DNA of 64,000 nt from positions 253,146,001-253,210,000 of the forward strand of contig OZ024742.1 of NCBI GenBank assembly GCA_964016885.1, in the 5' to 3' direction. The notes below the pieces were generated by a model that saw only the letters and a list, made by a program, of their open reading frames with translations, had not been told where the DNA came from and made no database searches. Of this stretch, positions 6,865-60,649 are shown one piece after another. This DNA is from Eledone cirrhosa (taxonomy: Eukaryota). Both the position numbers and the translations under genes were made by a program. The first letter of the stretch is position 1. The number at the start of each line of letters is the position of its first letter.

Positions 6865-7326
6865 GTTTATTTCAAGTTTCACTTGAAGAGGAAAATCAGG
6901 GTGGAGAGGCAAGTGCTGCTTTCTAGCAAGTTTGTTGAAAGGTGGGTGAATGTAGTGAGAATGGTCTGAGTGAACGGGACCGCTCTGAATATACGCCTGT
7001 ATTTTGAGAAATGGAAAAATTGAGAGAGGGCGCTTGCCCTGGTGGTCAGGGTGGCCGTGGTCTTTTGTGTGGTTTTCGCCACGAGTAACCCTCGGAGGTT
7101 TCTCCCCTATTGGGGAATTTTAATAGTTTCAATTTTCATTTTTATTGTTTATATATATATATATGTTTCTATGTCTTTTTCTTATTCTTTTCTTATATAA
7201 ATAATAAAAATCTTTACACGCACAAAACCCACATCGTACCGTCTTATACCGTCCTGTCGTCTGTAATGTTTTTATTGATGTCAGCCCTTGTGGCCAATAA
7301 AGAAATCATTATTATTATTATTATTA
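6865..7326 (+). mobile_element. 3' end of an L1/Tx1-clade LINE (ORF2 C-terminus plus 3'UTR)
   Basis: Encodes FKFHLKRKIRVERQVL..KFVERWVNV; ends gcccttgtggccaataaagaaa, matching the 3' end of the Tx1 element at ~50085-50110 (minus). Confidence 0.75.
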
Positions 7327-7511
7327 GGGCGGTGGATTGGCAGTATCGGTAGAGGGTCGGACGCCATGCTTTACAGCATAGTTACGTCCCTTTACGATCT
7401 GAGTTCAAATCCCGCCGAGGTTGACTTTGCCTTTCATCCTTACGAGGTCGATAAAATAAAGTACCAGTAATGCACTGGATAATTGCTGGCCTTGTGCCTA
7501 AAGTAGAAACA

Positions 7512-7557
<46 letters not shown>
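7327..7557 (+). mobile_element. tRNA-derived SINE, family A, (ATT)n tail
   Basis: A-box-like tggcagtatcgg, B-box gttcaaatcc, central gcctttcatccttacgaggtcgataaaataaagtaccag, (att)n tail; many copies in the window. Confidence 0.9.
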
Positions 7558-7558
<1 letters not shown>

Positions 7559-7561
7559 GTA

Positions 7562-7761
7562 AGGGAGGTGAATTGGCAGTATCGGTAGAGGGTTGGACGC
7601 CATGCTTTCTAGCATAGTTACGTCCCTTTACAGTCTGATTTCAAATCCCGTCGGGGTTAACTTTGCCTTTCATCCTTACGGGGTCGATAAAATAAAGTAC
7701 CAGTAATGTACTGTGTAATTGCTGGCCTTGTGCCTAAAGTAGAAACAATTATTATTATTAT
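7562..7761 (+). mobile_element. SINE family A, tandem second copy
   Basis: Near-identical to 7327-7557 and starts right after its tail. Confidence 0.9.
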
Positions 7762-14197: not shown

Positions 14198-17046
14198 TCA
14201 ATAAGACAATAGAGGTAGTTCGAGTTAGTAATCAAATAATTAAGCTTAGATTAGTTGTAGGTAGGAGACTACTGACAATCATCTCGGTCTATGCTTCCCA
14301 AGCAGGCTTAGGCAAAGATGAGAAAGACTGCTTTTATGAGCAACTTTTGCAAACAACCGCAATGACAGAGGACGGTGACATCGTTATGCTAGCAGGAGAC
14401 TTCAATGGTCATGTTGGACAGCTCCAGGATGGTTACACTGGGGTACATGGTGGGCACGGTTACGGTTCAAGAAATGAAGAAGGAGTGAGACTTCTTGAAT
14501 TTTGTGATGTGAGTACATTGACTATTTGCAACACAAACTTCCAGAAACCTGCCAATCACCTAATAACCTACAAATCTGGTGAGAACCTAAGCCAGATTGA
14601 CTTCTTGCTAGTTAGGCAGCGGGACAGGCAGATAGTGTCTAATACCAAGGCATACCTTGGGGAAGAATGTACCCCACAGCATAGGTTAGTTGTTAGTGAT
14701 ATCTCAGTAAGGAAGAGATGGAATGAGACATATAGGAAGGTGTGGAGAAGAAAGGTCTGGAAGCTAAAAGACCTTTCACTAAAATACAAATTTAGGAAAG
14801 CCCTTCAAGATGTATATGACGAAAAAGAAGACGATTTAGAGATGTATAACATAGATAATAACTGGAATTTCTGACGTGACAACTTGCTGCAAGCTACTGA
14901 TGAAACCTGTGGCTGGAGCAGAGCTCCAACCAGACAGAGAGTGGCCTGGTGGTGGAACAGCACAGTAGATAAGGCTATTAGAGACAAAAGACTAGCATGG
15001 AAGGCTTGGAAAAAGGGTGGGAGTAGGGAAGAATATACAGCCACTAAGAGAGAAGCTAGACGTCAGGTGTACTTAGCACGCAGGGAGGCAGAGAGTAGGA
15101 GGTTTGCCAATGTTCTGCGACGGGAAGATCAGAGGCGTGCGGTGTTCCACATTGCAAGGCAGTGTGTCAATGCAAATCAGGATGTTGTTGGAGATAAATG
15201 TGTCCGGGATGATGCCGGTGTACTTAGTGTCACGAATGATCAGAAAAAGGAGGCCTGGAAATGTCATTATGAGAGACTGATGAATGTGGAGAACGAATGG
15301 GAGAGAGAGAAATTACCCTTGGTAGATCCGACAGAGGGACCAGCTATTGAGATTGATGAATATAGGGTCCAAGAGGCGATTAGGGAAATGAAAAATGGTA
15401 AGGCGGCCGGACCATTGGGAATAGTTGCTGAGATGCTGAAGGCATCAGGGGACGTAGGCACTAAACTGGTTGCACGCATCATCAATCAGGCTATATATGG
15501 TGGTGTCATACCCAAAGACTGGTGCAGCAGTATTCTCATAAATTGCTACAAAGGTAAAGGGGATGCTTTGGAGAGGAGCAATTATAGGGGTATAAAACTG
15601 ATAGATCAGGTTATGAAAGTGGCAGAAAGGATTTTAGCACAACTAATTAGAGAAAGGGTCAAACTAGATGAGATGCAGTTTGGTTTTGTGCCTGGGAAGA
15701 GTACAACAGATGCCCTCTTCTTGGTGAGACAAATGCAAGAGAGGTTCTGAGAGAAGAATAAGCCACTATACTTAGCCTTTGTTGACCTAGAGAAGGCCTT
15801 TGATAGGGTACCCCGATCTGTCATCTGGTGGTCCCTAAGGAAGCTAGGTGTTGAGGAATGGCTTGTGAGGACAGTGCAAACTTTGTACAGAGGTACTCTC
15901 AGTAAAGTCAGGGTAGGAATGGAGTTTAGTGAGGAATTCCAGATACAAGTAGGAGTACATCAGGGTTTGGTCCTCAGCCCGCTCTTGTTCATTATAGTCC
16001 TCCAAGCCATAACAGAGGAGTTTAAGACTGGCTGTCCATGGGAACTTCTCTATGCTGACGATCTGGTTCTTATAGCAGAATCAGTAGAGGAGCTAGAGAA
16101 TAAATTCTGGCTATGGAAACAGCAGTTGGAAGCAAGAGGACTGAGAGTGAATCTAGCTAAGACAAAAGTGTTGATGAGTAGAAAAGAGGACAAAACCCTG
16201 ATTCCGTCAGGGAAATGGCCATGTTCGATATGCAGAAAAGGTACTGGCATAAATTCTATAAAATGCACACAATGCAGATCCTGGGTACACAAGAGATGTA
16301 GCGGGATAGCAGGCAAACTAACAGGTAGGGAGAAATATGTATGCAGTAAATGTACAGGGAAATTAGACAGTAGAAGTCGCACTGATAGACACATTTTTCA
16401 AATGCAAGAGGGCGCTATAGAAGTGGTGGATAGCTTTCGGTACCTAGGAGATCAGATTAGCATGGGAGGAGGGTGTTCTGAGGCCATAGTATCTAGAATA
16501 AGGACGGGTTGGAAGAAGTTTAGGGAGCTGCTTCCTCTGTTGACGAAGAAGGGTTTCTCCCTGCGTATGAAAGGCCGGTTGTATGATGCCTGTGTGAGGA
16601 GCGCGATGCTGCATGGTAGTGAGACATGGGCAGCAACTGCAGAGGATATGCGACGGCTGGAGAGAAATGAGGCAAGCATGCTCCGTTGGATGTGCAGTGT
16701 AAATGTGCGTGAACGACCCAGCATAAATGTGTTGAAAGAGAAACTGTGTCTGAGAGGGATAGAATGTAGTGTACGGGAAAGGAGACTGAGGTGGTATGGA
16801 CATGTGATGCGCATGGAGGATGACCGATGGGTGAAGAAGTGCCAGGAAATGCCAGTTGAAGGAAGACGTGGTAGAGGTAGACCACGAAAAACATGGGCGG
16901 AGGTGGTGAGAACAGACCTCAGATCATTGAAGCTCACGGTGGAGATGACGAGGGACCGTGACGAGTGGAGAGATGCTGTGCTGAATAAGACCCGTTTCAC
17001 CCTTGCAAGCAGGGAAAAGCGGACGTAAAATGATGATGATGATGAT
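14198..17046 (+). mobile_element. RTE-clade LINE (5'-truncated APE, RT, internal PHD finger), interrupted by single stops
   Basis: APE motifs GDFNGHVG, SQIDFLLV, QHRLVV; RT NYRGIKL, QFGFVPG, VDLEKAFD, QGLVLSPLLF, LLYADDL, FRYLG; C-terminal GRRGRGRPRKTW; (gat)n tail; ORFs 14140-14874, 14884-15750 and 15865-17028 share one frame. Confidence 0.95.
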
Positions 17047-17495
17047 ATATATATACATGGTTGTGATGGGGGAGAGGTCCATCATTTCATCACTAAAGGT
17101 TGGGGTCATGGTGGTGCCAAGCCTCCCTTGGTGGTCTAAAAGGAGGGTATTTATATACTGCTTGGGTCCTCTGGTTGTGTGTTGTCCATCATTTGGGTGT
17201 GTGCCAGGCTTTCCTTGGATGAGAAAGTGTTGGGAGTGCAAGGAATCAGCAGAGTATGGTGAAATAGATAGTGTAGTGAAAATATTATTTTGTAATATAG
17301 TCCCAACACAGTTCCATTGAGTTACAGTGACCAGGTCATAAACTATGTAATGAAAATATTATTTTGACACCAACAAACAAATGAGAAATGTAAAGCGAAT
17401 TTAACAATAGATTTTGTGAGTTTTTGAAGAGCTAAAATAACTCTTCCACAATGTAATTGCTTTAGTTTCATATACATATATAAATGTGTGTATGT

Positions 17496-17532
<37 letters not shown>

Positions 17533-17552
17533 ATATTTATACATATATATAA

Positions 17553-17598
<46 letters not shown>

Positions 17599-17714
17599 CA
17601 CACACACACATACATACACATATATACAATATTTTATATATATATACATATATACAGATATAATATTCCATATATATATACGTACATATATATATAACAC
17701 ACACACATATATAT

Positions 17715-17887
17715 CAGTAGAGGGTCGGACGCCATGCTTTGACGCAAAGAATTACGTCCCTTTCCATTCTGAGTTCAAATCCTGCCGAGGTTAACTTTGC
17801 CTTTCATCCTTATGGGGTTGATAAAATAAAGTACCAGTAATACACTGGGTATTTGCTGGCCTTGTGCCAAAAGTAGAAACAATTATT
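17715..17887 (+). mobile_element. SINE family A
   Basis: Same B box, central domain and tail. Confidence 0.9.
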
Positions 17888-18356
17888 TCTTTTTATTCTT
17901 GAAACTATGGTAGAGAGACAATCATTGAGACGTCTAATAGAGACAAATAATTTTTTAATTGATAAATATATATATAGTTAAGCATAGGGTTAAAGTTCCA
18001 TACAAATCAAAGATAATGCAATAAAAATAAGTGGAAATGATCAGAAGTGTATTTAAAGAATCTTTTTACTTTAATAAAAAAAAAACCTCAAATATTTCTA
18101 TAATTTTTACATCAAGTAGATTCAAGCTTCATCAAATATTTTTACCAGTTTTGATTAATTACAACAAAGTTTTCTAATAATAATAAATTTAACAAATTCA
18201 TTTCTCATATTTTGTAAATTTTTAAACATTTGATTATTTTCTATCTGAAGCGCCTCCTTATATATATTTTTGTGCAGATGGGCTGGTGGGGGTGGATGTA
18301 GAGTTCAAATGTTCTGGATTCAATTTGATTCAATAGAAATTTCTAGAGTTTATTCT

Positions 18357-19480
18357 CATCATCATCATCATCATCATTTTACGTCTACTTTTCCCTGCTT
18401 TCAAGGGTGGGATGGGTCCTCTTCAGCACAGCATCTCTCCATTCATCACGGTCTCTCGTCATTTACTCTGTGAGCTTCAGCGACCTGAGATCAGTTCTCA
18501 CCATGTTTTTCGTGGTCTTCCTCTACTGCATCTTCCTTCCCCTGGGATTTCTTGGCACTTCTTCACCCAGCAGTCATCTTCCATGTGCATCACATGGCCA
18601 TACCAACACAGTTTTCTCTCCCACACACTACAGTTTATCTCTCTCTCTCTTATACACAGTTTCACTCTCAATTCGTCCATGCTTGGTCATTTACGCACAT
18701 TGATATTGCACATCCATCGGAGCATGCTTGCTTCATTTCTCTCCAGCTTTTGCATATTCTCCGCAGTTGCTTCCCATGTCTCACTACCATGCAGCGTTGT
18801 GCATCTCATACATGCATCATGCAACCGACCTTCCGTTCATAAGGAGAAACCCTTTGTTGTCAACAGAGGAAGCCACTCCCTAAACTTCTTCCATCCTGTC
18901 CTTATTCTAGATACTATGGCCTTGGAGCATCCTTCTCCTTTGCTAATCTGATCACCTAGATGTCGGAAACTATCAACCACCTCTATAGATCCTGCCTATA
19001 TTTGAAAAATGTGCCTATCGCTGACACTTCTATCAATTTTTCCCGAACATCTACTACATATGAAGTTTTTCCGTCCTGTTAGTTTGCCTGCTATTTACGC
19101 CAACTCCTTTTCTACATATTGGGCATAACCATTTCCCTGATGGAATCAGAGTCTTGTCCTCTTTCCAACTTATCAACACTTCAGTCTTTGCTAGGTTCAC
19201 TCTCAGTCCTCTTGATTCCAACTGCTGTTTCCATAGCTAGAATTTATTCTCTAGCTCCTCTACTGATTCTGCTATAAGTACTAGATCATCAGCATAGAGA
19301 ATTTCCCATGGGCAGCCAGTCTTAAATTCCTCTGTTATGGCTTGGAGAACTATAATGAATAGGAGCAGGGTGAGGACTGAACCCTGTTGAACTCCTACTT
19401 GTATCTGGAATTCCTCACTAAACTCCATTCCTACTCTCACTTTATTGACAGCTCCTCTGCATAGCTTACACTGTTCTCAC
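18357..19480 (-). mobile_element. 5'-truncated copy of the PHD-RTE LINE family
   Basis: RVGMEFSEEFQIQVGVQQGSVL..GCPWEILYADDLVL, GRPRKTW and the same tail as 14198-17046. Confidence 0.9.
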
Positions 19481-23872: not shown

Positions 23873-24459
23873 TTATTCTCAAGGAAATACCAACCCTATG
23901 TACAGGGCTGTATCATTCATAAGGTTGACTAACATGCTCGTCTCAGATTAGTAATGATAAACTTAGGAAAATTAACAAAGAGAGGACTAGAAAACAAATG
24001 AAAACCCAAACAATTCCCCAAATAATTTTTTATGGGGAAACCTTAAGAAATTATTTTTTTGAAAATTAATTAATTAATAAGTGTTATTAAATTGATAAGC
24101 CCTAATTTTACTCCGTAATGTTTATTCAAGTCAAAATACGAGTATTAAATATAACAGCCAAACTAAAAACTACATAGTTGATGCATTACTAATAATTTTT
24201 TAATCTCTACATCTAGTCTTCCATAACTTTTAAGATTTTTCGGACTATTGTAAAGTTTGTTTATGTTTTTATGAATTATTTCGTGTTTGGAGACATTCGG
24301 ACATGTGGTTGGTAAAAAATATGTAATGATTCTGATGAATTCAATACAGAGGAATAAAATGCAACTTCCTTATGTATTTGAATGAAATGCATATATATCA
24401 ACTAAAAAGTGTATTAAAACATGGTTATTATTTATTCATTATATATATATATATATATA

Positions 24460-24574
24460 GGAAAAAGTATGACTCCGACGGCAGAGCTCAAGCCGTTTCG
24501 ATGGCTATTTCTGGACTAAATTAGAATGTTTAGCCTGGTGAATAAATAGCCGAACTTGTCAAGGGGGTACTTCC
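24460..24574 (-). ncRNA. Type I hammerhead ribozyme, U3-A8 core variant, in the inverted pLTR
   Basis: Minus: ggaagtaccccc-TTGACAA-..ggctattt...aaatagcc..-GAAA-cggc ttgagctct gccg-TC-ggagtcatactttttcc. Confidence 0.7.
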
Positions 24575-26071
24575 TTATATGGGAAGATTATAGTTGTCAA
24601 GAGGATTGGAGGTATGGGTGGCGGAACTTGCCTGTAGAACAATAGGGGAGTGAGTGGAGCGGTCAAGCGTTGAAAGTGATATGTATACAGCAGATTCTAA
24701 GGATAGTGTATGAAGTGGAGGAGGGACGTTATAGAATAAGTAAACACCTATTGGGAAAATCTTCTTTAGACTCCTCGAAAAACACTTCCCACTACAACAC
24801 CGCTACCACAACATAATCAACAAAAGCACCATCAAACTCTCCTACAGCACCACACCTAACTTCGCACAAAACATTGTCTCCTCAAACAACAATAAACTCA
24901 ACCCCTATGGAAGAAATAACCTAGACATCAGTGGAGAGCCGACCAGGGGGTGTAACTGCCCTGATAGATCTACCTGCCCCCTCAACAACAAATGCCGAGA
25001 ACGTAACGTGATCTACCAGTGCAACGTGAGGACGGACACCTCCAACAAAGCTTATATAGGATTAACCGCGTGTGACTTCAAGACCCAACTCTACCAACAC
25101 CGACATACTTTCCGAAACCTGGTCCGGCGACATGCCACTACACTTTCGGGCCACATCTGGGACCTCGAAGATAATAATATAACCTACAATCTCACTTGGA
25201 GCTTACTGTTCAGAGCTAACTCTTACACGGGAGGACGCCGTCCGTGTAACTTATGCTCGGAGGAAACATTACAAATGCTGTTTTCGAAGGACCAATTCCT
25301 AAATAAGAAAGACAAACTGGTAACCGCATCCAAACACAGATTGCGTAGGACTTACCTCGCCCTCAAACCCCATAACGGTGGGTAGACAAGGGCTGATACT
25401 CCCCCCTCTTGCCGAATAAGTTAGGGGAAACCTCAGCTTACATAGGTATATGCATATCGTTTCTTTTCTTTTCCTCTTTGTCTTCTTCTTCCCCCTGTCT
25501 CATCCTATCACTTCCTTCCACCCCCTATTTTCTTCCTCGTCTGCTTTTCCCCTTTCGCCTAGCCCGATGCAGCCAATCGGGCCTCTGTAGCATCAGTTCC
25601 CCACCCCTGTAATTTTAAGATAGAATTGTCCGAATACGTTTTATTAACTACTTATAGCAGACGAGTTAAACCCCTTTAATTCTGTATCAGTTCTGGTACT
25701 ACTCAATTTCTACAAGTTTTTTCTATTCTCAACTTATTAACCTGTAATTGTAAGATAGCATTGTGATTTTTTTTTTATTCATTTCTCACTATCTAATTTT
25801 ATATATATATTTTTTATTTATTTTTATTTATTTCTATTATCTTTTATTGTCTCCTACTCTCATTCGATTTACTTATTCTATAACCTCCCTCCTCCACTTC
25901 ATACACTATCCTTAGAATCTGGTGTATACATATCACTTTCCATGCTTGACCGCTATTGTTCTACAGGCAAGTTCCGCCACCCCTACCTCCCACCAAATGC
26001 CATTATAGACTTATTTGTGTTTACAACAAATGTTAACCAATACTCTTGACAACTACAATCTTCCCATATCA

Positions 26072-26185
26072 GGAAGTACCCCCTTGACAATTCGGCTATT
26101 TATTCACCAGGCTAAAAATTCTAATTTAGTCCAGAAATAGCCGTCGAAACAGCTTGAGCTCAGACGTCGGGGTCATGCTTTTTCC
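26072..26185 (+). ncRNA. Type I hammerhead ribozyme, U3-A8 core variant, in the 3' pLTR
   Basis: cccc-TTGACAA (26084-26090), stem II cggctattt/aaatagccg, GAAA (26146-26149), GTC (26166-26168), gggg; stem III has mismatches in this copy. Confidence 0.65.
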
Positions 26186-26291
26186 TATTTACCACTCTAC
26201 TACCCTAAGTATTGAGTACTCTGGTGCGTTATGGTCCATCTGGTTCCTTACCACAATTCCTTTGTTTTATATATATATATATATATATATA

Positions 26292-26437
26292 TCATCATCA
26301 TCATCATCAGGTTTAGCGTCCGTGTTCCACGCTTGCATGGGTTTGGACGGGGGTTTTCCCACTTGAGGCAAGAGTGGTTGTCTTGCTCGCATAGGACTGT
26401 CTGGCGGGTTTTCTACAGTTGGATGCCCTTCCTAACA
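26292..26437 (-). mobile_element. SINE 3' part (family-B-related), same as 43795-43945
   Basis: Near-identical reverse complement of 43795-43945; (gat)n tail. Confidence 0.8.
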
Positions 26438-26461: not shown

Positions 26462-29400
26462 TCTATCTAAGGCGGGTAAAATTCCCGAGATCCATGGACG
26501 AGTTCTCTCCAGCGGTCTCTGTCCCTCATTATCGCTGCCATGTCCTGCATCTCCAACAGACCAGTGTCTGTCCTTAGGGCATCAACATATGTTAACCTTG
26601 GTCTTCCTTTTCTAGTGTGTCCATGTAGGGGCTCCCAAAGGAGTACTGAGTGCAATGTCAACTCTGGATGTCGGTGAGCATGTCCAGCTAACCTCAGTCT
26701 CCTCTGTGTCACTTTTGAGCTGACTCTTGGGATGCTCCCATACAGCTCTGAGTTTTTCATCCTCAGTGTATACTGATTAATGTTCAGAGCCATCCTCAGC
26801 ATTCTCGTGTAGCACCCATCCACCATCTGAGTGAGTTTCTTGGTCAGTGTCCAAGTCTCAGACCCATACAGCAGCACAGACTCCACTACAGCAATGAAGA
26901 GGCGGACTTTCAGGTCTCTACGAAGGTCCGACTTCCACACCGATCTCAAGCTGTGGCATGCCGCCCAGGCCTTGCTCTTCCTCTCAACCACATCATCTTC
27001 CGTATTCCCAATCTTTGCTCCCAAATACAGGAAGTCCTCAACCAATTCCAGCGGCTTCCCGCCTACATTAGTGATCCCCTCTGGCTTCTCAACATTCTCT
27101 ACCAGATATTTTGTTTTAGTCTCATTCATTCTCAGCCCCACCCTCATCGACACAGTCTCAACCTCCCGCATCAAATCCTCTGCCTCCTTCACTGTATTTG
27201 TCACCAAAACTATGTCGTCGGCAAATTCAGCATCCGATACCTTTTTCGCCTTAACTCTCCTGCTCTGAGCCGGTGCTACAGTAAAGCCAGAGACCTGGTG
27301 TTTCTCCAGTGCAAGGCGCATACAATAGTCCACTACGATGATAAAAAGGTAGAGAGCCAATGTATCTCCCTGGAGCACTCCAGCCAGTATCTCAAAGAAC
27401 TCTGTCATCCCATCAGGTGTAATGACTTGGGCTTTGGTGTTGGTGTAGAGCAGTAATATCAGGTCCACTATCTTCTTGGGGATTCTATAAGCCTGTAAGA
27501 TCTTCATCAGGCAGTAACGGTTCACAGAATCAAAGGCCTTCCTAAAGTCAATGAAAACCATGACCGCAGGAAGGCACTTTGCTCTAGCTCCCTCTAATAT
27601 CCTCCTCAGCATCAGGATGTGACTGGTGGTCGATCTACCCTCTCTGAAGCCGTTCTGGTTGTCCCTGAGCTTCTTCTCCATCTCAGGCTGGATCCTGTTA
27701 AGAATCATCCTGTTGAGGGTCTTTGCCACAAGTGACATCAGTGAGATCCCCCGGTAGTTGTTGGTGTTAGAGAGATCTCCCTTCTTTGGCACTGGGACGA
27801 TGTTACTGATCCTCCACTGATTCGGGGCAACTCCTTTCTCCAGTGCCCCGTTACAGAACCCCAGGATGATATCATCAAAATCACACCTCTTCATCACCTC
27901 TGATGCCACTCCATCTTCTCCATGAGCCTTGCCCTCCTTGATCCTCTTCTTGGCTCTCTGAAGCTCCTCTCTGGTGAAGGGCTCTGTCTCAACATCCAGT
28001 TCCTCAAATAGCTGCCTGATCTCCCCAGTGCTCTGGGCTGTGGAGGGTGGCTCTCCTAGTAGGGTCCTAAAATGGTCTAGCCATTTCTTCTTCCTATCCT
28101 CGGGCCCCGTTCCCTGGATCTGACTCGAACACCTTCTCTTCCTCCCTGTGATCTCGTTGATGATCATCCAGCTCTCCTTACATCCAGATCTGTCAACCGC
28201 TCTCTCCACACTTCTGATCTTCTCTATCAGTGCCTCCTCTCTGACCTCAGTGTAAGCGGTACAGAGCTCTTCCCTCATCACCTCCACAGTCTCCATCCTC
28301 TCCTCCGTAGGATCAGCATAGAATTGGTCCCTGGCAGCTTTCAGGTGTTCTCTGGCTGCACACACTTTTGGGTTTGCAGAGCTGACGTGCTTCCCTTTGT
28401 TCTTTTTCCTCGGCACCAGGGTTTCACTTGCTTCCGCCACTGCATTGGTGAAGTGCCCGTACCTCCTCGTCACACTCTCCTCAGTCCATCCAATCTCTCT
28501 CTCCTCTGACTCTCCACACAGAGCACTAAACCTGTTTCTCACTTCCACTGTGAACCTCTCCTGTAGCTTATCATCTTCCTTGAAAGCTCCCCAGTCATAG
28601 ATTGTTCTCCAGGGCTGAGCCTTGCTCTTTCTTAAGCTCACGCGGACCTCACTCATAACAAGCCGGTGGTCACTACCCAGTGTACTGAAATAGCTGTATG
28701 GTTCCGTGTTCAGAACACTATTCCGCCACTTTTTCCTCACCAGAATGAAATCAACCTGGGACTTGGACAGGTGCATATCTGAGATGTAGGTCCACATCTT
28801 CCCCAGATTCTTCCTAAACCCTAGGTTGGTCGCCATCAAGTTCGCCTCCAGCAGGGTGTCTCTCAGTAGTCTTCCATTTCGGTTGGTGTTGTTATGGAAG
28901 TACCAGCAAGGATCTTCACTGCCCTCCTTACTCAGATGTGCATTGAAGTCCCCCAAAACAAGCAGGATATTGTGTGCCTGAGTGGTGTTGACAGCTCTAC
29001 ACACCTCCTCATGGAACTCTTCCGCATTCACATCACTGTCTCCCTTGGTTGGACTATAGGCTGAGATGACTGTCAGTCTTGGGTTTCCATTGAAGGTCAC
29101 CCTCAACACTCGCGGGGAGATAGGCATTATTTCCCTCACCAACAGATTGGTTTTTGCACTGAACACAAAACCCACTCCTCCTACTGCAGCATTTGTTGTG
29201 TTCTTCACTGCCGATGTAGTGATGAGCTGGCTCTTCCTCCCAATTATCACACTCCTCACGGGCTCATCGTGTAGGATCCTGTGTTCTTGGATCGCGAGTA
29301 TCTGTATACCACTCTCCTCGAACAGATGGCCCAACTCCTCTCTCTTCCCCAGCGTCCGAATAGTCCTCACATTCAAAGTGCCCATTTTGATGGCTCTTCT

Positions 29401-29629
29401 GCAGGACAAAACTGCATTCTTTATATTTGTCTCAGAGACAGCTGATCCATCATCCACTGGCCCTCTCTGTGGCTCTAAGCCAGCAGAGTCATAACGACCA
29501 GGCTGCTCCTTGACTGTAATTAGGGGCTCTAACCCTAGTGCTGTTAGATCGACTCTCCATATTTCTTTTCAATGGCTGACAATACCTTACCGGCGCCACT
29601 TGAATAAGGTAGTTATTTACCCCATAAAT

Positions 29630-30972: not shown

Positions 30973-31001
30973 ATCATCTGCAAAACATGCATATATATAT
31001 A

Positions 31002-31448
31002 TCTATCTAAGGCGGGTAAAATTCCCGAGATCCATGGACGAGTTCTCTCCAGCGGTCTCTGTCCCTCATTATCGCTGCCATGTCCTGCATCTCCAACAGA
31101 CCAGTGTCTGTCCTTAGGGCATCAACATACGTTAACCTTGGTCTTCCTCTTCTAGTGTGTCCATGTAGGGGATCCCAAAGGAGTACTGAGTGCAATGTCA
31201 ACTCTGGATGTCAGTGAGCATGTCCAGCTAACCTCAGTCTTCTCTGTGTCACTTTTGAGCTGACTTTTGGGATGTTCCCATACAGCTCTGAGTTTTTCAT
31301 CCTCAGTGTATACTGATTAATGTTCAGAGCCATCCTCACCATTCTCGTGTAGCACCCATCCACCATCTGAGTGAGTTTCTTGGTCAGTGTCCAAGTCTCA
31401 GACCCATACAGCAGCACAGACTCCACTACAGCAATGAAGAGGCGGATT
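31002..31448 (-). mobile_element. 5'-truncated copy of the intact RTE LINE
   Basis: Near-identical to 26462-26908; one premature stop at 31211. Confidence 0.95.
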
Positions 31449-32615: not shown

Positions 32616-32812
32616 TAACAATACATATATGTATATATGTATATATATAATATTCTATGTCTATATTCACATATATATCGCTATTTCAGAGCATTTATTC
32701 CAATTTCTAATTTCTGCCGGACCGGCAACCGCTCTTTCAAACCAGTTCCTGTACACAGCTAAGTATTCTATAAGTCTCTAGCTGTGTCATTCTCGATAAA
32801 AGCACTGGATAT

Positions 32813-32855
32813 GTAGTCCTGATGATTTCTAACAAGAATGAAACGCGTAGATTAC
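32813..32855 (+). ncRNA. Minimal type I hammerhead ribozyme
   Basis: gtagtc-CTGATGA-tttctaacaagaat-GAAA-cgcg-TA-gattac; stem I gtagtc/gattac extended by a 16-bp helix attctcgataaaagca/tgcttttatcgagaat; palindromic stem III. Confidence 0.9.
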
Positions 32856-33122
32856 TTCCCTTGCTTTTATCGAGAATCTAATTGTAATACGTGACGTATT
32901 CTATTCTATAGCGATTAGGTCTTCAAAATGTTTATTATAAACATACAGAATATTTTCGAATATTCTATGTCTATATTCACATATATATCGCTATTTCAGA
33001 GCATTTATTCCAATTTCTAATTTCTGCCGGACCGGCAACCGCTCTTTCAAACCAGTTCCTGTACACAGCTAAGTATTCTATAAGTCTCTAGCTGTGTCAT
33101 TCTCGATAAAAGCACTGGATAT

Positions 33123-33165
33123 GTAGTCCTGATGATTTCTAACAAGAATGAAACGCGTAGATTAC
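33123..33165 (+). ncRNA. Minimal type I hammerhead ribozyme (second unit)
   Basis: Identical to 32813-32855, shifted by 310 bp. Confidence 0.9.
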
Positions 33166-33367
33166 TTCCCTTGCTTTTATCGAGAATCTAATTGTAATAC
33201 GTGACGTATTCTATTCTATAGCGATTAGGTCTTCAAAATGTTTATTATAAACATACAGAATATTTTCGAATATTCTATGTCTATATATATATATATGTTT
33301 ATCCCAGGTTCAATTAGGGGTAACCACAGTAAGTAAGGTACTCAATACATAGCATAGTATAAATATT

Positions 33368-38450: not shown

Positions 38451-38645
38451 GGACTGTACCCCTTGATAAGTTCAACTAGATTCCCGCTGTTCTAATACTG
38501 GTGGCTTGGTTCGGATCTAGCTGTTGAAACGGCTGGAGCTCAGCCATTGCGGTCCTGACTATTTTCCTATTACCCACTCTACTACCCTAAGCATTGAGTA
38601 CTCTGGTGCCTTATGGTCTATCTGGTATTTTACCACACCTTCTTT
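38451..38645 (+). mobile_element. Solo pLTR-like segment with a U3-A8 hammerhead, related to 26072-26262
   Basis: cccc-TTGATAA (38463-38469), ctagattcc/ggatctag, GAAA-cggctg gagct cagcc-ATT, then the shared tail ccactctactaccctaagcattgagtactctggtg. Confidence 0.7.
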
Positions 38646-38724
38646 GTTCTTTAGCACCTACTTCAGTAGTGGAGCACTCTTCGATCCATACCACACTCAA
38701 ATCCTGACACTACTGCCAAGCTTC

Positions 38725-38759
<35 letters not shown>

Positions 38760-38767
<8 letters not shown>

Positions 38768-41700
38768 TGCAGTATCGTAAAAGAGAATAGAGAGAAGAGG
38801 TATAAAGAGGTGCGATACAGAATATTACATGCCAAAAGCGGGTGCGTAAGTGTTCGATGCCTGGGTTATCAAGGTTAAATATTAGAGAAAATTAATATTT
38901 AGTGTACAGGATTAAGCAGAGCGGTGATAGGCAAAATAATTAATGAAAGAGTTACAAGCCATTAAATCATATCTTTATAAAGCTCTTACACATGTTTTGC
39001 CCAATGGGGTTCGTCTGAGGCAGATATTAAGGCAAAGTTTTTAATTAAATACCCTGTTCGGGTAAAATAATAATTTAACATCAGAATGCATATTACATAT
39101 ATGTTGTTAAGTATAGAAAAATGGTGGAAAGATGTTAGTATGCTAAGGGAGGTAATTACCGGTGCTGGTATAATGTTTCTTCTCAAACTAATGACCGCTA
39201 CCGGCTTAGTAAGAAATTTTATTTATTATTTAAAAGGAATTAACGTAAGTAGGGTTGGTCAACTCAATGTAATGAGGCGGTGTTAAGGTGTGAGTATGAA
39301 TTATTAGTAAAGTCATTAAAGACTATACACAGGTTTAACTAGTGCAATGTGGCAAGTTCGGTGTGAGTTTGAAGGTCTAGAAAGGTAAAGTCACTTTAGA
39401 TAGAATTTGTATATTTATATGATCAGTTGTCTAAGAAATAGCTTGGGTATAAGCGGCGGTTCTGTAAAATTACCCAAAGATCGGTCTGACCGTGTGGATG
39501 AATATAGCAGGGTAGGCCCAGCTGAATATATGCAGTGCAGCTTCCTGGAGGGAAAACAGAGGGTGGATGATGGTGTTGTTCCAAGTTGTTTAATGGTAAG
39601 TCAACCGCCGGTAAGTCAGGCCAGAGTGTGGTGTTGAGAGCATCAGGTGTTATGGTGGTTATGTAGTTGTTGGGGTCCATCTATAGAAAGATTGTTGCAG
39701 TCGATGGCCGCAATTGATAACAGTTTCAGCCTGACTATTCATGAGGTCCAGGGGTGCTTGCACTATATAATATAGTTCCATCAGGCAGAGTTGGCAGCTT
39801 TTTAAAAAATTGTATGTTGTTGTTTGGTTCACAATTTCCCAATGAGTGGTGAAGCTAATGTTAGTGTCATTTAACTGGGTGATATAATTAGCGAGAGAGG
39901 TAGAGTATCTAAGCTTCCTATTCCTAAAAGAGTGGAGATGTGCCCGAAATCTTGTCTTGAACGCTCCAGAAGTAGCTCCTATGTAAGACTTAACACTATT
40001 ATGACTAGTAACCGTGCATCTATAGATAATATTTTTAGTCAAGCAGTAGCCTCGGAGTGGACAGCCCACAGGGTTACGACAATTGCAATGGTTTTTTGTT
40101 GTCACCTCTAAGGTGGTGAGTGTTGGTGTTAATTGTATTGTTATTATTACCACCATCACCATAGCTACCATAGTTGTGGTTGGCATTATTATCGCTATAA
40201 ACATGCAAAATGGTGCCATTCCCACCTCTCATGCTATAGCGTCTTCTACAGCCATTGTTAGAGCTGCTATGGTTTCTAACCGTGTCGTCGGTCACACTAT
40301 TGGTGCTGCAGTTAGTTTCTACTATGATGCTATTGTGTAATCTACTGCTAATACTAAGGTACCTGTTCTGGTTACTACTATCGTTATCGTGCAGGGCGAG
40401 AGAACTGTTAAGGTTAACTGAGTTGTCATATTCACTAAAATTCTTATTACTAGCATGTTGTATTCTAGTGAGCTTGCTGTGGTTACTTATTGCTATGAGG
40501 TCGGCTAGATTAGGTGTAGTGGAATAGGAGATTTTTAAGTTATTCTTATTGAGGATTTTTCTGTATCTGTGGTTTGGTGGAAAGTTCCTCTCTAAGGTGT
40601 CAAAAAAGATACTGGGTAACTTGGAGGCCACACTCCGAGAGTAGAGGGATGGAACCATAGGACATTACGGTGGCGATTCTGCGTAGTTCTAGGGTTACTA
40701 CGGGTTTTATTGCCTTAGTAGGTGCCCCTATCATGGCTATAGGGCTGCTGTATAATGTGTGCTCTGTTGGCATTATGCCTGAGTGCACAGACACCCCCAG
40801 TACGGCAGTTTAGGGTTACCCTAGGCGGGTTATAAGGTGTAGGTAACAAACTGTCACCTTTATTAAGCTCGTAAGCGGGGAATAATTCCAGTAGGCTGCA
40901 GTTATTACTATAATCAGCCGGACCATGATGGTGTGGGTATGGTAATATACCCGTCCCGCTAGCTTTATGGTTAAGATGCGGGCCGTAGCCAGTGATATTA
41001 TTAACTCTTCTAATACTTTTTATGCTTGTAGGGCCGCTGTGGATTTGGTTATAGGTATGGCTCGCTATAACACTGTTCCTACACGAGGGGGGCTTTATAG
41101 AGCCTGCGTCGTGGAGGTATGAAATTTTGCTGTTATAACCTGAATCAGCCAATGCCTTGTTATAATAATCAGCAGTTTGGCTGAAGAGGTCTTCATTAGC
41201 AGAAAGCCTCGAGATTCTATGTGAGATGCTATACACAATAGAGTTGAGCATAGATTTAGGGTGGTTAGAAGCATAGTTGATGTAGGAAAGGACCTCACCA
41301 GGCTTGTGGTATGGTCTGTATAAGCCGGTACCTAATTATAATGTAACATCTAAGAAAATAACTATATTATGGTTGTGGTCTATAGTTACAGAGAGGCCTT
41401 ATGATTTAAAGAACTTGTGTATATGTTTATTAAAGGTTTTCTATCCTACGAGGCCTATGGTTCTTTACAGTGAATAGGGCATCGTCCCTATACACACCTC
41501 CTTGTAGCACAATGATCTTGTCTCTAAGTCTGTGCAGGAGGTAAATCCCAGCCATGTCAGTTGCCTGCGCTGAGTCACTTGACCCCATTGTGATATCAAA
41601 GTTATCAGGATGGCTGGTTCTGGTCCAGTAGGAGCCCTCGAAATAAATAATGGTTCTCCGCGCTCAAGCACTATATCTATTTCTTTTTTAGTTAAACTAG

Positions 41701-42532
41701 TGTTAGATCTAGCTAAGATGAGGGCCTTATTTAGGAGTATAGGGGAAATAGAGGCGTAGTAATTGTCTATGTCGAACTGGATAAATTTCAGAGATGCCTT
41801 ATCGGGTAGATCTGTGAACCATTTAATGACCTGGTCGGTATTGTTCCAGAGACGGACCTTAGCTTTACTATTAAGTTCAGGTATTATCCTATCAAGAATC
41901 ACTTTGCTAATTCTACCTATATCTGAAGTGGAGGAGCATATTAATCTTATAGAGGGTCTTTCATTAAAATTATATTTGTGATCCTTAAGAGAAAATTTTG
42001 GTGCCATAGGTACATAAGGGTTAGTGTATTTATCTATATCTAAGCTAGTTACAATGTCTTTGCCTAATCTATTAATGTTGTTTAAAGTGCTACTAGGCAT
42101 TTTCATGTAATTTTTGTTTAATTCATTATAGATGAATTGTCTGTATCTACTTACATTCAACTTATACAAGTTCTTAGTTTTAATAGATGCAATAAAAAGG
42201 TGCCTGTCATTCTTGATCTTAGTGATGAGAGAGTCCGGGGATGTCAGGAACGTATTGCTGCATTTGCGTCTATTCTTAAACTTGATATTTTTGATCATCT
42301 TGAGCAAATCTTCCTTAAATGAGTCCAACAGTGTATTGTGCGGTGGGTTCCGGTAGGTCTTAAAACCGTATTTTTCTTTAGGTACTGGAAGATTATCAGT
42401 ATCCTTATCCAAATGGTAGGCCCTCCATCTGACCCTACGTATAAACGAATTCGTAGTGGAAATGAGTTGTTTAAGGTAAGTTTTCTGCTAGGTATAGACT
42501 TGAGAGACATAGGTAACGGTTGTTTCTCCAAC
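38760..42532 (-). mobile_element. Near full-length, frameshifted Naiad-type Penelope-like element
   Basis: EKYGFKT..PP..FKEDLLKMIKNIKF, KTKNLYKL, LKDHK.NF..P.IRLI, FIQFDIDNYYASI; C-terminal CNCRNPVGCPLRGYCLTKNIIY..YIGAT..CQLCLME GIY-YIG; decayed HHR at 38982-39022 in the 3' region. Confidence 0.9.
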
Positions 42533-42565
<33 letters not shown>

Positions 42566-45660: not shown

Positions 45661-46026
45661 TTTAATTAAACACACAGTATATTGCCAAATATACTATACA
45701 TACATTCATGTATACATTGCTATTTCAGAGCACTAATACTAATACCTAACTTTTGCTGGACCGGCAACCACTCTGTTTAATCAGCTCCTAAATATTACTG
45801 GAATTCTATAAGAATCTAGCTTCTATAACTCTCGGCACAAGCAAAGGAGTGAGTGGTCTTGATAAATGCTAATAAGCGAGAAACAGGATTGTCGATCACT
45901 TTTCTTTGCTTTTGCCTAGAATAAGTAAGTGACATAGTCACTACTTTAAAACTCATAGCGAATGGTCTCCAAAATGTTTTTAATTAAACATGCAGTATAT
46001 TGCCAAATATACTATACATACATTCA
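45661..46026 (+). mobile_element. 318-bp monomer plus 48-bp terminal redundancy, homolog of the 310-bp retrozyme-like unit
   Basis: taattaaaca..cagtatattgccaaatatactatacatacattca at 45663 and 45981; shares gctatttcagagca, ggaccggcaacc, attctataag and atagcga.tggtct.caaaatgttt with the 32649 unit. Confidence 0.85.
45852..45900 (+). ncRNA. Type I hammerhead ribozyme, U3-A8 core
   Basis: agtggtc-TTGATAA-atgctaataagcga-GAAA-caggattg-TC-gatcact; extension agcaaagg/tctttgct. Confidence 0.85.
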
Positions 46027-46779
46027 CTTATTTTAGTATTTATTTAATAACTATTAATATGTTTTCTTTGCCCCCTTTCTTCTCTTAGCACTTCCTTCCA
46101 TTATTCCCCACCCTTACCTTCCAGTGTCCTTTTTGAGTCTCCCAGTATGCCCAGCAAATTAGTAGCACTCCCTTGAAAATCACTGTTCTCACCTTTTCAA
46201 TACTATGTAACCTGAAACCACCCCTAGTTCTATGATACAAAACTATATATTTTGCAGTGTTTATATTTGTGTAAAAAACCTTCCATCATAATTTTATGTA
46301 AGAACCTTTGTTATGTTATGTTCCCAACATCATCATAATAACAAGCAAGTTAGTTATATTACTAAATCACTCAAAATTCTTGAGTATTTTCAAAATTATA
46401 TGAAAATCATAGGTAGGGTATTTCATTAAAAATGTGGTAATAAACGGTTTAAATTGATTAGCATTTATTAATGCCATTTATTAAACCATATTCTTGTAGT
46501 TTCTTTTAGTTTGTTTAATTGTTTGCTGTTTGAGATCCAGGACTGCTCTTTTTTATTTGTATTAACTGTTTTAATTTGACCATTACCACAATCAGCACAT
46601 TATTATCAACATCTTCATAATCATCAACATCTTCATCATCATCATCATCATCATCATCATTTTATGCCCATGCTCTCTGCTGGAGTAGTTTGGAGAGGTT
46701 GTTATGAGTAGTGAGGCATCTTGTTTATATGTTCCATATTTGCCATGGTGTCTATGACATGATGCATTTCCTAGCACCA

Positions 46780-57034: not shown

Positions 57035-57110
57035 AGATAGGGTGTGGTAAAAGCCAGCTAGACCATAACCCACCAGAGTACTCGATATTTTGAGGAGTAG
57101 AATGGGTAAT
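57035..57110 (-). mobile_element. Isolated pLTR tail of the U3-A8 HHR family
   Basis: Minus: attacccattctactcctcaaaatatcgagtactctggtgggttatggtctagctggcttttaccacaccc, matching 38569-38640 and 26187-26260. Confidence 0.7.
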
Positions 57111-57450
57111 GTCAATGTATGTGAACGACCAAGCATGCATGAGTTGAGAGAGAAACTGTGTATAAGAGGGATAAGTTGTTGTGTGCAGGAGAGAAGACTG
57201 CGATGGTATGGACATGTGATGCGCTTGGAGGATGATCGCTGGGTAAAGAAATTCCAAGAAATGCCAGTAGAAGAAAGACAGTAGAGGAAGACCACAAAAG
57301 ACATGGGTGGAGGTGGTGAGAGCGGACCTCAGATCTCTGAAGCTCACGGAGGAGATGACGAAGGACCGTGACAAGTGGAGAGATGTTGTGCTGAATAGGA
57401 CCCATCCCACCCTTGCAGCCAGGGAAAAGAGGATGTAAAATGATGTTGAT
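57110..57450 (+). mobile_element. 3' fragment of the PHD-RTE family
   Basis: VNVCERPSMHELREKLCIRGI..ERRLRWYGHVMR; tail cccatcccacccttgcagccagggaaaag. Confidence 0.9.
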
Positions 57451-58635: not shown

Positions 58636-58689
<54 letters not shown>

Positions 58690-58895
58690 CATGGTTTGGC
58701 AGTATTGGTAGAGCGTCAGACACCATGCTTTGCAGCATGGAGTTGTGGCCTTTTACGTTCTGAGTTGAAATTCACCGTGGTTAACTTTGCCTTTCCTCCT
58801 TACAGGGTTGATAAAATAAAGTACCAGTAATACACTGGGTAATTGCTGGTCTTGTGCCAAAAGTAGAAACAATTATTATTATTATTATTATTATT
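58690..58895 (+). mobile_element. SINE family A within (ATT)n
   Basis: Family A motifs. Confidence 0.85.
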
Positions 58896-58924
58896 ATTTC
58901 CATTATTATTGTTATTGTGCATCA

Positions 58925-59385
58925 TTACTGCTTTACCAAGCACACCTCTGTGCACCTTGGGTATGAGCAGTGTAGTTTTTGCTGATGTTGTTTCTATTGT
59001 ATTGATAGTACTTTTTGTAATATGTGTGCAGTGCCTAGTAGTGCTATCTTTTGTATGCTATATATATTTGTAAGTCCTGGGGTTTTAGCTATGTTAGTCT
59101 GTATGTTTTTTTATCATTACCAGAGCACATATTATTATAGGTATTGTTTCTCTTTTCATTTTCCACAATAGAGTTATTTCTATCTCTAGATCTTTATATT
59201 TGGAGAGTTTCTCTATTTCCTTGGAAGATATATTGTCATCTGTGGTGATAAATACATCTATTATAAGGCATTCTTTTTCTTTGTGGTCTTTGACTATAAT
59301 ATCTGGTTGGTTAGTCTTGATCTCTGTCTGTACGTATTGGCATATCCCAGAAAATGGTTACTTTGTCATTCTCTGACAGTTTTTC
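58925..59385 (-). pseudogene. RLE element 3' end (endonuclease)
   Basis: ENDKVTIFWDMPIRTD..PDIIVKDHKEKECLIIDV..KEIEKLSKYKDLEIEI. Confidence 0.85.
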
Positions 59386-59413
59386 TGATGTCTGTTATTA
59401 TAATTATCATTAA

Positions 59414-60075
59414 GGGCAGTGGATTAGCAGTATCAATAGAACAACGGATAACATGTTTCACAGCAGAGTTATGGCCATTTACGTTCTGAGTTCAAATCCC
59501 GCCGAGGTTAATTTTGCCTTTCATCCTTACGGGGTCGATAAAATAAAGTACCATTAACGTACTGGGGTCGATTTAATCGACTTTCCCCTCCCCCAAAATT
59601 ACTGGCCTTGTACCTAGAGTAAAAATCATTATTATTATTATTAGCATCAGACAACATGCTTTATGGCAAAGAGTTACGGCCCTCTACGTTCTGAGATAAA
59701 ATCCTGCCAAAGTTAGCTTTGCCTTTCATCCTTACAAGGTCAAAAAAATAAAGTACCAGTAACACACTGGGGTTGATTTAATCAACTTTCCCTTCCCCAA
59801 AAATTTGTTAGCCTTGTGCCTAAATCAGAAATGATTATTATTATTATTAGGGTGATGAATTTGCAGTATTGGTAGAGTGTCAGACAACATGCTTTGTGGC
59901 AAATAGTTACATACCTTTAAGTACTGAGTTTAAATCCTACTGAGGCTAGCTTTACCTTTCATCATTACGCAGTTGATTAAATAAAGTACTGGTAATGCAC
60001 TGGGTTTGATCTAATTAATTTTTCCCTTCCCATCAAAATGCTGGTCTTGTGCTAAATCTAGGAAAAATTATTATT
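59414..60075 (+). mobile_element. Three head-to-tail SINE family A copies (longer subtype)
   Basis: Copies at ~59414, ~59645 and ~59849, separated by (att)n tails. Confidence 0.85.
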
Positions 60076-60649
60076 TTTATTGTTGTTGTTGCTTGAACTT
60101 CTGTTTTTGTTTTCTTACATCACAATTAATATAAAAGCTAAAAAGAAAATTCTTAAGCTTTATCATTTCTTCAGTCTAAGCTGTCATTGTCCTGCAGTAA
60201 AACATAAGATTTCAGCTCAAGGGAATGATAAAAGAATTCATCAAACAATATTAAAGAATTTAAATGTGTAGCTGGAAGTTTTATTTATATTTTGCATGTG
60301 AAACAAATGAAGTTTATCAAACACGATACTGAGAAGAAGTGGTCAAATATTCATTAGCCAGTAGTATAACGCAATCTAACAGTTGGGTAATTTGCTTGGC
60401 TGGGGAATTGTATAGAAAAAAAGTGAAGTACTAACAATTGAACAGAAAACACATCGAAAGAGGAGCCAGGAAACAAAAAATCAGCTATTAACTGCCAAGT
60501 TAAACATCAGAAACTGCAAGAGGAGGCACACGAAGTTGAGCATGGCATAGATTCATTATTGTAAAGCATACAATAACTATGGAAATGTAATGAGTAGCAG
60601 GAAACATGAGAAACTTTATTTGGGGCATTATAACTTCTCCTAACACCAG

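Follow-up and report, generated by a model that had tools for sequence, protein, structure and literature searches.

The genome of Eledone cirrhosa contains a truncated Penelope-like element (PLE) whose 3' region, the pLTR, is present on both strands and carries a hammerhead motif with an unusual core and a very long second stem. The locus raises the question of which kind of PLE this is, whether such a hammerhead is the property of a family or the product of decay, and what determines the points at which copies of the element end. We approached it from the window, that is, the whole stretch of 64,000 nt that was analysed, together with related reads, Hydra-type loci and published elements.

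Anatomy of the insertion

The element, at 24460-26267, is bounded by (TA)n runs on either side. Its features, and those of a related fragment elsewhere in the window, are the following.

24440..24459, no strand: (TA)n target, left side
24454..24744, minus strand: inverted, 5'-truncated copy of the 3' end of the element, which stops about 20 nt past the cleavage site, ahead of hairpin 1
24465..24572, minus strand: type I hammerhead of the 5' copy (56-nt domain II; core at 24562-24556, GAAA at 24499-24496, GUC at 24479-24477)
24744..25385, plus strand: 5'-truncated ORF; GIY-YIG endonuclease at the C-terminus, almost certainly of Hydra type (CxCx5C at 24951, YIG at 25053, CxxC at 25245)
25386..26267, plus strand: 3' untranslated region, or pLTR
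26074..26180, plus strand: type I hammerhead of the 3' copy (core U3-A9 at 26084-26090, GAAA at 26146-26149)
26080-26083/26169-26172, plus strand: helix I of the 3' copy, with an extension at 26074-26078/26176-26180
26091..26145, plus strand: long domain II of the 3' copy (proximal, covarying 9-bp helix and internal loop; in the distal part, a partly conserved 7-bp helix and an 8-nt loop)
26149-26153/26163-26167, plus strand: helix III of the 3' copy, enclosing a near-palindromic loop
after 26168, plus strand: predicted cut of the 3'-copy hammerhead
26190..26267, plus strand: 'tail', at the 3' end of the element only; its terminus aligns 4 nt ahead of hairpin 2 of the longer copy at 38654
26194..26222, plus strand: first of the bulged leader hairpins of the Hydra clade, hairpin 1 (ACUC-UACU-loop-AGUA-UU-GAGU-ACUCU)
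26268..26292, no strand: (TA)n target, right side
38453..38730, plus strand: pLTR fragment, diverged, from a related subfamily (UUGAUAA core at 38463; 56 nt in domain II), in which hairpin 1 (GAGU at 38596) is accompanied by a hairpin 2 that is degenerate (GAGC at 38672)

An inverted partial pLTR beside a truncated GIY-YIG frame had been described in the initial annotation of this DNA, and the alignment agrees. It sets 24454-24744 against 25868-26191 of the other strand, with identity in 260 columns, 16 mismatches and one gap per copy (14 nt in the 3' copy, 48 nt in the 5' copy); the inverted part makes up the first 285 nt of 24460-26267. The element is likely to have arisen long ago by the 5'-truncated insertion into (TA)n of a Penelope-like retrotransposon from the Hydra clade, with the usual inverted partial copy at its 5' side.

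Several other repeats were noted in the window. A lone tail fragment at 57043-57114 (minus strand), with a degenerate hairpin 1, ends at (TA)n and has unrelated sequence upstream; it is probably a very short 5'-truncated insertion. Adjoining the element, at 26467-29568 (minus strand), is the insertion of an unbroken 1033-aa frame resembling a LINE with an APE endonuclease and a reverse transcriptase (RT), which we take to be RTE-like; the segment 26452-26751 is repeated at 30992-31291. A repeat of about 235 nt, both dispersed and in tandem, has (ATT)n at its bounds and looks SINE-like; it occurs at 7308-7761, 11070, 17696 and 58686-60081, and a hammerhead scan of this repeat found none. A long inverted repeat occupies 15888-19459, its arms of more than 1 kb matching in pieces at 81-88%.

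Clade of the element

The frame at 24744-25385 encodes 213 aa and is a GIY-YIG-type PLE endonuclease by homology, as had been proposed, with 5,965 relatives at E <=0.001. Pfam gave no match for the frame itself and nothing relevant among 10 of its homologs, and comparison of the endonuclease alignment with viral contigs found no relative. The endonuclease terminates the frame; in full-length homologs the RT lies upstream (P0001-P0003, P0019, P0048) and carries RWR and DKT (for example in P0019, P0048 and P0113), a region that is gone from the window copy. The motifs of the endonuclease are a CxCx5C linker (CNCPDRSTC), YIG and CxxC (CNLC). CxxC and CxH stand beside conserved E and N, the last Cys, present in nearly all relatives, being Ser in the window copy, and a near-invariant Arg is replaced by Gln. 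Because the segment 24460-26267 is without an RT and has Gln at this Arg, the window copy is, judged from its sequence, dead.

Elements of the Hydra clade are described as having a C-terminal GIY-YIG domain, a CxCx5C linker, CxxC and CxH near conserved E and N, and RWK-type and DKT motifs (PMC8557442). In Naiads, according to the same source, the endonuclease is N-terminal and bears a CCHH motif and a CX2-5CxxC finger; these elements are described there as lacking canonical hammerheads. Among the conserved endonuclease columns the CCHH pattern is absent, and the linker is CxCx5C rather than a CX2-5CxxC finger. We are nearly certain, on these motifs, that the element belongs to the Hydra clade. 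The 'Naiad-type' label first given to it is wrong, since its endonuclease is C-terminal, its linker is CxCx5C and its pLTR holds a three-helix type I hammerhead. With Hydra elements such as Hydra-1_Obim and Hydra-2_Amil it shares the C-terminal GIY-YIG, the linker and the CxxC/CxH motifs around E and N, and also the (TA)n target, the sense hammerhead in the 3' pLTR, the inverted truncated copy and the tail (PMC8557442). The hammerhead itself differs: the Hydra rows of File S2 of that paper all have C3 at the core start and a short stem II, whereas the element here has U3 and a long domain II; Hydra-1_Obim is a different family with a canonical hammerhead (PMC8557442).

Another Hydra-type PLE, also decayed, retains remnants of its RT and endonuclease between (TA)n runs at 38760-42550 (minus strand). 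Its endonuclease is about 30% identical to the one studied here, and the stretch UUGAUAA ... GAAC at 38872 is possibly what is left of a U3-A8 hammerhead.

Twin bulged hairpins in the leader

Downstream of the hammerhead cut lies a bulged hairpin made up of GCUC, an upper stem, a loop, the other strand of the upper stem, a UY bulge, GAGC and ACUBU. A motif present at 26214, in the tail, as well as in published consensi of Hydra elements, is the 3' arm of this hairpin. In hairpin 1 of the window the closing pair is A-U; in most relatives it is G-C.

Its occurrence was followed in Hydra-type loci collected with an alignment of 10 proteins, not the closest kin of the window element. At least 403 loci were confirmed among at least 605 candidates, and the best 80, which form 61 clusters, were surveyed. 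Within these best 80 of at least 403 loci, the motif was counted 81 times in sense and 3 times in antisense orientation, and the hairpin was found in 45 loci (34 of the 61 clusters), compared to 2 loci in antisense. In the same best 80, the hairpin lies downstream of 36 of the 50 hammerheads with a tail of at least 100 nt, in 35 cases 52-74 nt past the cut; the hairpins are usually paired, 54-77 nt apart, ahead of the start codon, and hairpin 2 stands 22-47 nt upstream of the first AUG in 17 of 18 long-ORF leaders.

Pairing of the two arms was assessed in 76 distinct motif instances, 60 of which form the closing 4 bp and the next pair (shuffle mean 2.5, maximum 8). A plain MAFFT alignment of 40 instances, chosen by the analyst from the 76, has 92.8% of its cells paired. 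Double-sided cells numbered 35, against 12.1 for shuffles, a value reached in none of 500 shuffles, and slid controls gave 1 to 6. A hairpin model built from 31 metagenome instances, with no window sequence among them, finds 26183-26226 (E 5e-5) and 38565-38608 (E 0.005), which are the top two of its six matches in the window. The upper stem has G-U in 6 cases and A-C in 2, counts too small to settle RNA over DNA. Rfam, applied to 12 of the 80 loci, gave no match to either a hammerhead or the hairpin.

A literature search, with subscription journals and Repbase reports outside its scope, returned no prior description of these hairpins, and the words 'hairpin' and 'stem-loop' are absent from the main text and the supplement text of PMC8557442. 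By eye, the leader hairpins are recognisable in the consensi of Hydra-1_Ajap, Hydra-2_Ajap and Hydra-2_Amil given with that paper (PMC8557442).

Insertion ends and a proposed start of reverse transcription

The 3' ends bounded by microsatellites fall into two classes, one situated 29-51 nt past the cut (12 of 13 ends, the other being at 74), and one situated 37-48 nt past hairpin 1 (7 of 7). Six of 28 ends could be projected onto a hairpin (L003, L017, L026, L052 and both window ends, from 5 families); for the other 22, there was no relative extending into a hairpin. All six projected ends sit 4-10 nt 5' of the hairpin base, and five of them read TAT or TATA. TAT stands ahead of 44 of the 56 hairpins, compared to a mean of 23 and a maximum of 34 in shuffles; the loci include related ones, which are not independent. 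One of the 22 unprojected ends, that of the copy that stops at 38730, is 58 nt past hairpin 2 and is unexplained by a start at the hairpin.

We lean slightly towards the view that the hairpins position internal initiation of reverse transcription, with protein binding and priming as presumed steps. The segment behind the cut would be the 5' leader of the element, with its two bulged hairpins. The RT-endonuclease would most likely bind a hairpin, and reverse transcription would begin 4-10 nt 5' of that hairpin, where a UA-rich stretch would pair with the nicked (TA)n strand. The two hairpins would then be two start sites: the inverted copy, with its short end, would have started at hairpin 1, and the main copy, with its tail, at hairpin 2. 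Whether Hydra-clade PLEs of several animal phyla possess in these twin hairpins, each with a short UA-rich stretch ahead of it, an undescribed cis-acting signal that binds the telomerase-related RT-endonuclease and places the internal start of target-primed reverse transcription 4-10 nt upstream, seems to us evenly balanced.

Internal initiation has a precedent in Poseidon, where reverse transcription starts at two internal sites behind the hammerhead and produces a tail (Frangieh et al. 2024, PMC11167929). The Poseidon element PAc of Anolis shares with the present one two adjacent internal starts that yield an optional tail, and an AT-rich target (PMC11167929). The start in PAc is inside an AC-rich stem-loop within the ORF, and the tail is 30-40 nt (PMC11167929), whereas the twin hairpin described here is clade-wide and belongs to the untranslated leader, and the tail of the present element measures about 78 nt.

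The twin hairpins may instead serve translation of the uncapped, ribozyme-cut RNA, or act as an internal promoter or a DNA endonuclease site, and the clustering of ends may reflect TA microhomology alone. Such a role, which we hold to be possible though rather doubtful, would suit the position of hairpin 2 shortly before the first AUG. It would also suit the D. virilis tail DNA, which is required for endonuclease recognition (PMC11167929), and the IRES-like functions proposed for R2 and L1Tc ribozyme leaders (PMC6765202); the upper-stem G-U and A-C counts are too few to speak for RNA. Translation, however, has no need of a second hairpin and fails to predict two classes of ends just 5' of hairpins, and the covariation of the upper stem favours a folded single strand.

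The hammerhead in the two genomic copies

The hammerhead in each pLTR copy is of type I; its core is U3-A8 and its domain II has 55-56 nt. The core UUGACAA, preceded by CCCC, is found at 26084 (plus strand) and 24562 (minus strand); domain II, of 55 nt in the 3' copy and 56 nt in the 5' copy, is closed by GGCUAUUU/AAAUAGCC, and GAAA and GUC follow, motifs that the initial annotation had already read from the sequence. Positions 3 and 8 pair as U3-A8, and G5, A6, A9, G12, A13, A14, A15.1-U16.1 and H17 are canonical. Helix III is undamaged in the 5' copy only, the 3' copy lacking two of its pairs, and helix I is undamaged in the 3' copy only, the 5' copy having one C.A mismatch; G10.1 is missing from the 3' copy. 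Because each copy has a damaged helix, a first strict hammerhead scan missed both. The ad hoc score used on the 80 Hydra-type loci also misses the 5' copy.

Rfam reported no hammerhead and no other relevant family in the window. A relaxed core scan of the window gave 16 loci, compared to 8-24 per shuffle; a strong class, with a stem II of at least 8 bp and a stem III of at least 4 bp, held 1 locus in the real sequence, while all of 30 shuffles yielded 0. Domain II by itself folds better than all of 200 shuffles (z -3.7 and -4.6), while the whole genomic motifs do not outdo all of them (z -0.7 and -1.6). About 120 nt upstream of the element, at 24332 (plus strand), a further stretch reads CUGAUGA ... 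GAAA with a 6-bp stem and an unconvincing helix I; it is inside the chance level of the relaxed scan.

The hammerhead as a family trait

Contigs of four runs (X1, X5, X6 and X7, of 10 runs listed) were placed on 25860-26275 at 80% likeness, which gave 15,417, 36, 14 and 6 pieces, respectively. In the depth-weighted majority of X1, helix III is restored (86% and 95%), G10.1 is present (73%), and so is the helix I extension (93%). U3, A8 and the GGGG strand have no variant at or above 10%; N7 varies (18%). Since the family reads restore the helices that are damaged in each copy, the non-minimal, core-variant hammerhead first ascribed to the lineage is a family trait, and not the product of two decayed copies. 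Among the X1 pieces, depth over the core is far below the depth alongside, since pieces are clipped at the gap. Depth is high over the tail; separate mobile units were considered as the cause and rejected, 5' truncation accounting for it.

The copy at 38463 retains U3-A8 and has three double-sided changes in the proximal helix II, where 3 of 10 pairs change on both sides among three sequences, two of them independent. On these three sequences, covariation is confined to helix II and the helix I extension, and none was seen in helices I and III or the distal helix. Stem I has an internal loop, and its extension differs in the copy at 38463. A loose end from X7, a second organism, has the core with U7, and another loose end has A at 10.2, which is able to pair; loose ends from X5 and X6, of depth about 2 where listed, have the core minus one U, with which the 3-8 pair is impossible.

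The family-majority form folds into three helices (z -2.6, with 2 of 300 shuffles as good). The open three-way junction, however, has a computed probability of 0.07 alone and 0.002 with flanks. G10.1-C11.1, at the base of helix II, is weak in the majority form (probability 0.06). Helix III and its loop make a near-palindrome, for which the dimer duplex is computed at -27 kcal/mol, against -6.5 for the hairpin. A pairing of the domain II internal loop with the tail, noticed by eye, was dropped, its 6 bp being judged to be within chance.

The family hammerhead is probably competent for cleavage. The U3-A8 pair, isosteric with C3-G8, stands in for it; domain II has lengthened, in the probable account, by distal expansion upon a conserved base helix of 9-11 bp; and helix III is a stable one of 5-6 bp, with a near-palindromic loop that also permits dimers. 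Tandem copies would be transcribed through the pLTR, and the multimeric transcripts would be cut after GUC by the hammerhead, probably conditionally and perhaps only with the help of a protein, as in PAc, where the hammerhead is protein-assisted and dispensable for insertion in vitro (PMC11167929). The cut would not be required ahead of insertion.

The hammerhead may, alternatively, be a relic, in which U3 and A8 are two transitions fixed in the family past the need of cleavage and the long domain II reflects relaxed selection. We judge this unlikely. That PAc insertion in vitro can dispense with cleavage (PMC11167929), and that 8 of 9 predicted Xenopus retrozymes failed to cleave (bioRxiv 10.64898/2026.07.22.740005), would agree with it, as would the weak base of helix II, the low junction probability and the two low-depth loose ends with broken cores. 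Against a relic stand the joint changes of U3 and A8, by which pairing of 3 with 8 is preserved both in two subfamilies and in a second organism, N7 meanwhile being free to vary, and the three compensatory pairs of helix II; the paired swap is also found in L048, L049 and at 45859.

Rarity and precedents of the hammerhead

A sense hammerhead was found by the ad hoc score in the 3' region of 54 of the best 80 of at least 403 Hydra-type loci; 20 of the remaining loci have less than 300 nt of 3' sequence and no match, 6 have none, and there were no reverse-strand hammerheads in these 80. The core is C3-G8 in 52 of these 54 hammerheads from the best 80 of at least 403 loci, and U3-A8 in 2; domain II measures 10-36 nt in all 54, with a median of 17.5. 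With 54 of 54 surveyed hammerheads inside this range, the 56 nt of the present domain II are an outlier in the Hydra clade. The two U3-A8 cases, L048:1768 and L049:1937, belong to unrelated Hydra-type elements on metagenome contigs and have a short stem II. The exact long-stem pattern was found in 0 stretches of the metagenome contigs.

The initial annotation had presented the link between a U3-A8 core and a protein-coding PLE as new. It was reported in 2014 for the pLTRs of Schistosoma Cercyon PLEs, with about 1,300 hits (PMC4209133), the only match of a literature search for U3-A8 by name. A U3-A8 hammerhead is known to be natural and active in vitro (PMC3088659). The literature search found no report of a natural hammerhead with a long stem II. 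The Schistosoma mansoni Cercyon hammerheads share with ours the U3-A8 core in a PLE pLTR, a longer helix II, motifs close together on opposite strands and a palindromic helix III region (PMC4209133); their helix II is of 7-8 bp and their helix III minimal (PMC4209133), whereas the element here has a domain II of 56 nt and a helix III of 5-6 bp. PLE-X1_sMoe of spike moss has, by our own count from File S2 of PMC8557442, a domain II of about 54 nt in its hammerhead, but its core is C3-G8 and it is an EN-less, Chlamys-related element, unlike the U3-A8, Hydra-type element studied here (PMC8557442). The hammerhead is a genuine, though modest, departure from the PLE hammerheads already known, and each of its features has a precedent.

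Retrozyme-like units in the window

Two homologous retrozyme-like units are present in the window. One, at 32649-33286 (plus strand), has a C3-G8 core and is a perfect 310-nt dimer with canonical minimal hammerheads at 32819 and 33129; the other, at about 45690-46040 (plus strand), has a U3-A8 core at 45859 and a longer helix III. By sequence comparison, this is a natural core swap (C3-G8 versus U3-A8) within one family of units. No homology of the units to the 3' region of the element was detectable (best blastn E 7.9), and no match to the hairpin was found in them; the role of likely helper for such units, first assigned to the element, is not borne out by these comparisons. The shared U3-A8 core is no sign of descent, because U3-A8 recurs independently. 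Retrozymes as derivatives or clients of PLEs are a published idea (bioRxiv 10.64898/2026.07.22.740005; PMC7229834).

That the element is a Naiad with a new hammerhead, acting as helper of U3-A8 retrozyme-like units, is highly improbable: a (TA)n target and an inverted pLTR are compatible with Naiads too (PMC8557442), a minimal U3-A8 hammerhead exists at 45859 and PLEs are proposed as general helpers of retrozymes (bioRxiv 10.64898/2026.07.22.740005; PMC7229834), but the endonuclease is C-terminal with Hydra motifs, the units share neither homology nor hairpin with the element, and their family contains both core types.

Implications

Taken as a whole, an old Hydra-clade insertion, a hammerhead belonging to the family and a start of reverse transcription positioned by hairpins make up what we regard as a probable account of the locus. 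The hammerhead widens the range known for PLE ribozymes, and descriptors that require C3-G8 or a short stem II miss such cases. The hairpins, whose position predicts insertion ends, matter more than the hammerhead.

PLE reverse transcriptases are sisters of telomerase RT. The binding motif of a PLE RT has been narrowed to 172 nt in vitro (PMC11167929). With a hairpin of 30 nt, covarying and twice repeated, template recognition and the choice of an internal start by PLE RTs become testable. If the proposed role of the hairpins is true, one motif would account for both alternative 3' ends and for the optional tail, as well as for some of the (TA)n preference; the hairpin would be a portable start signal for PLE reverse transcriptases.
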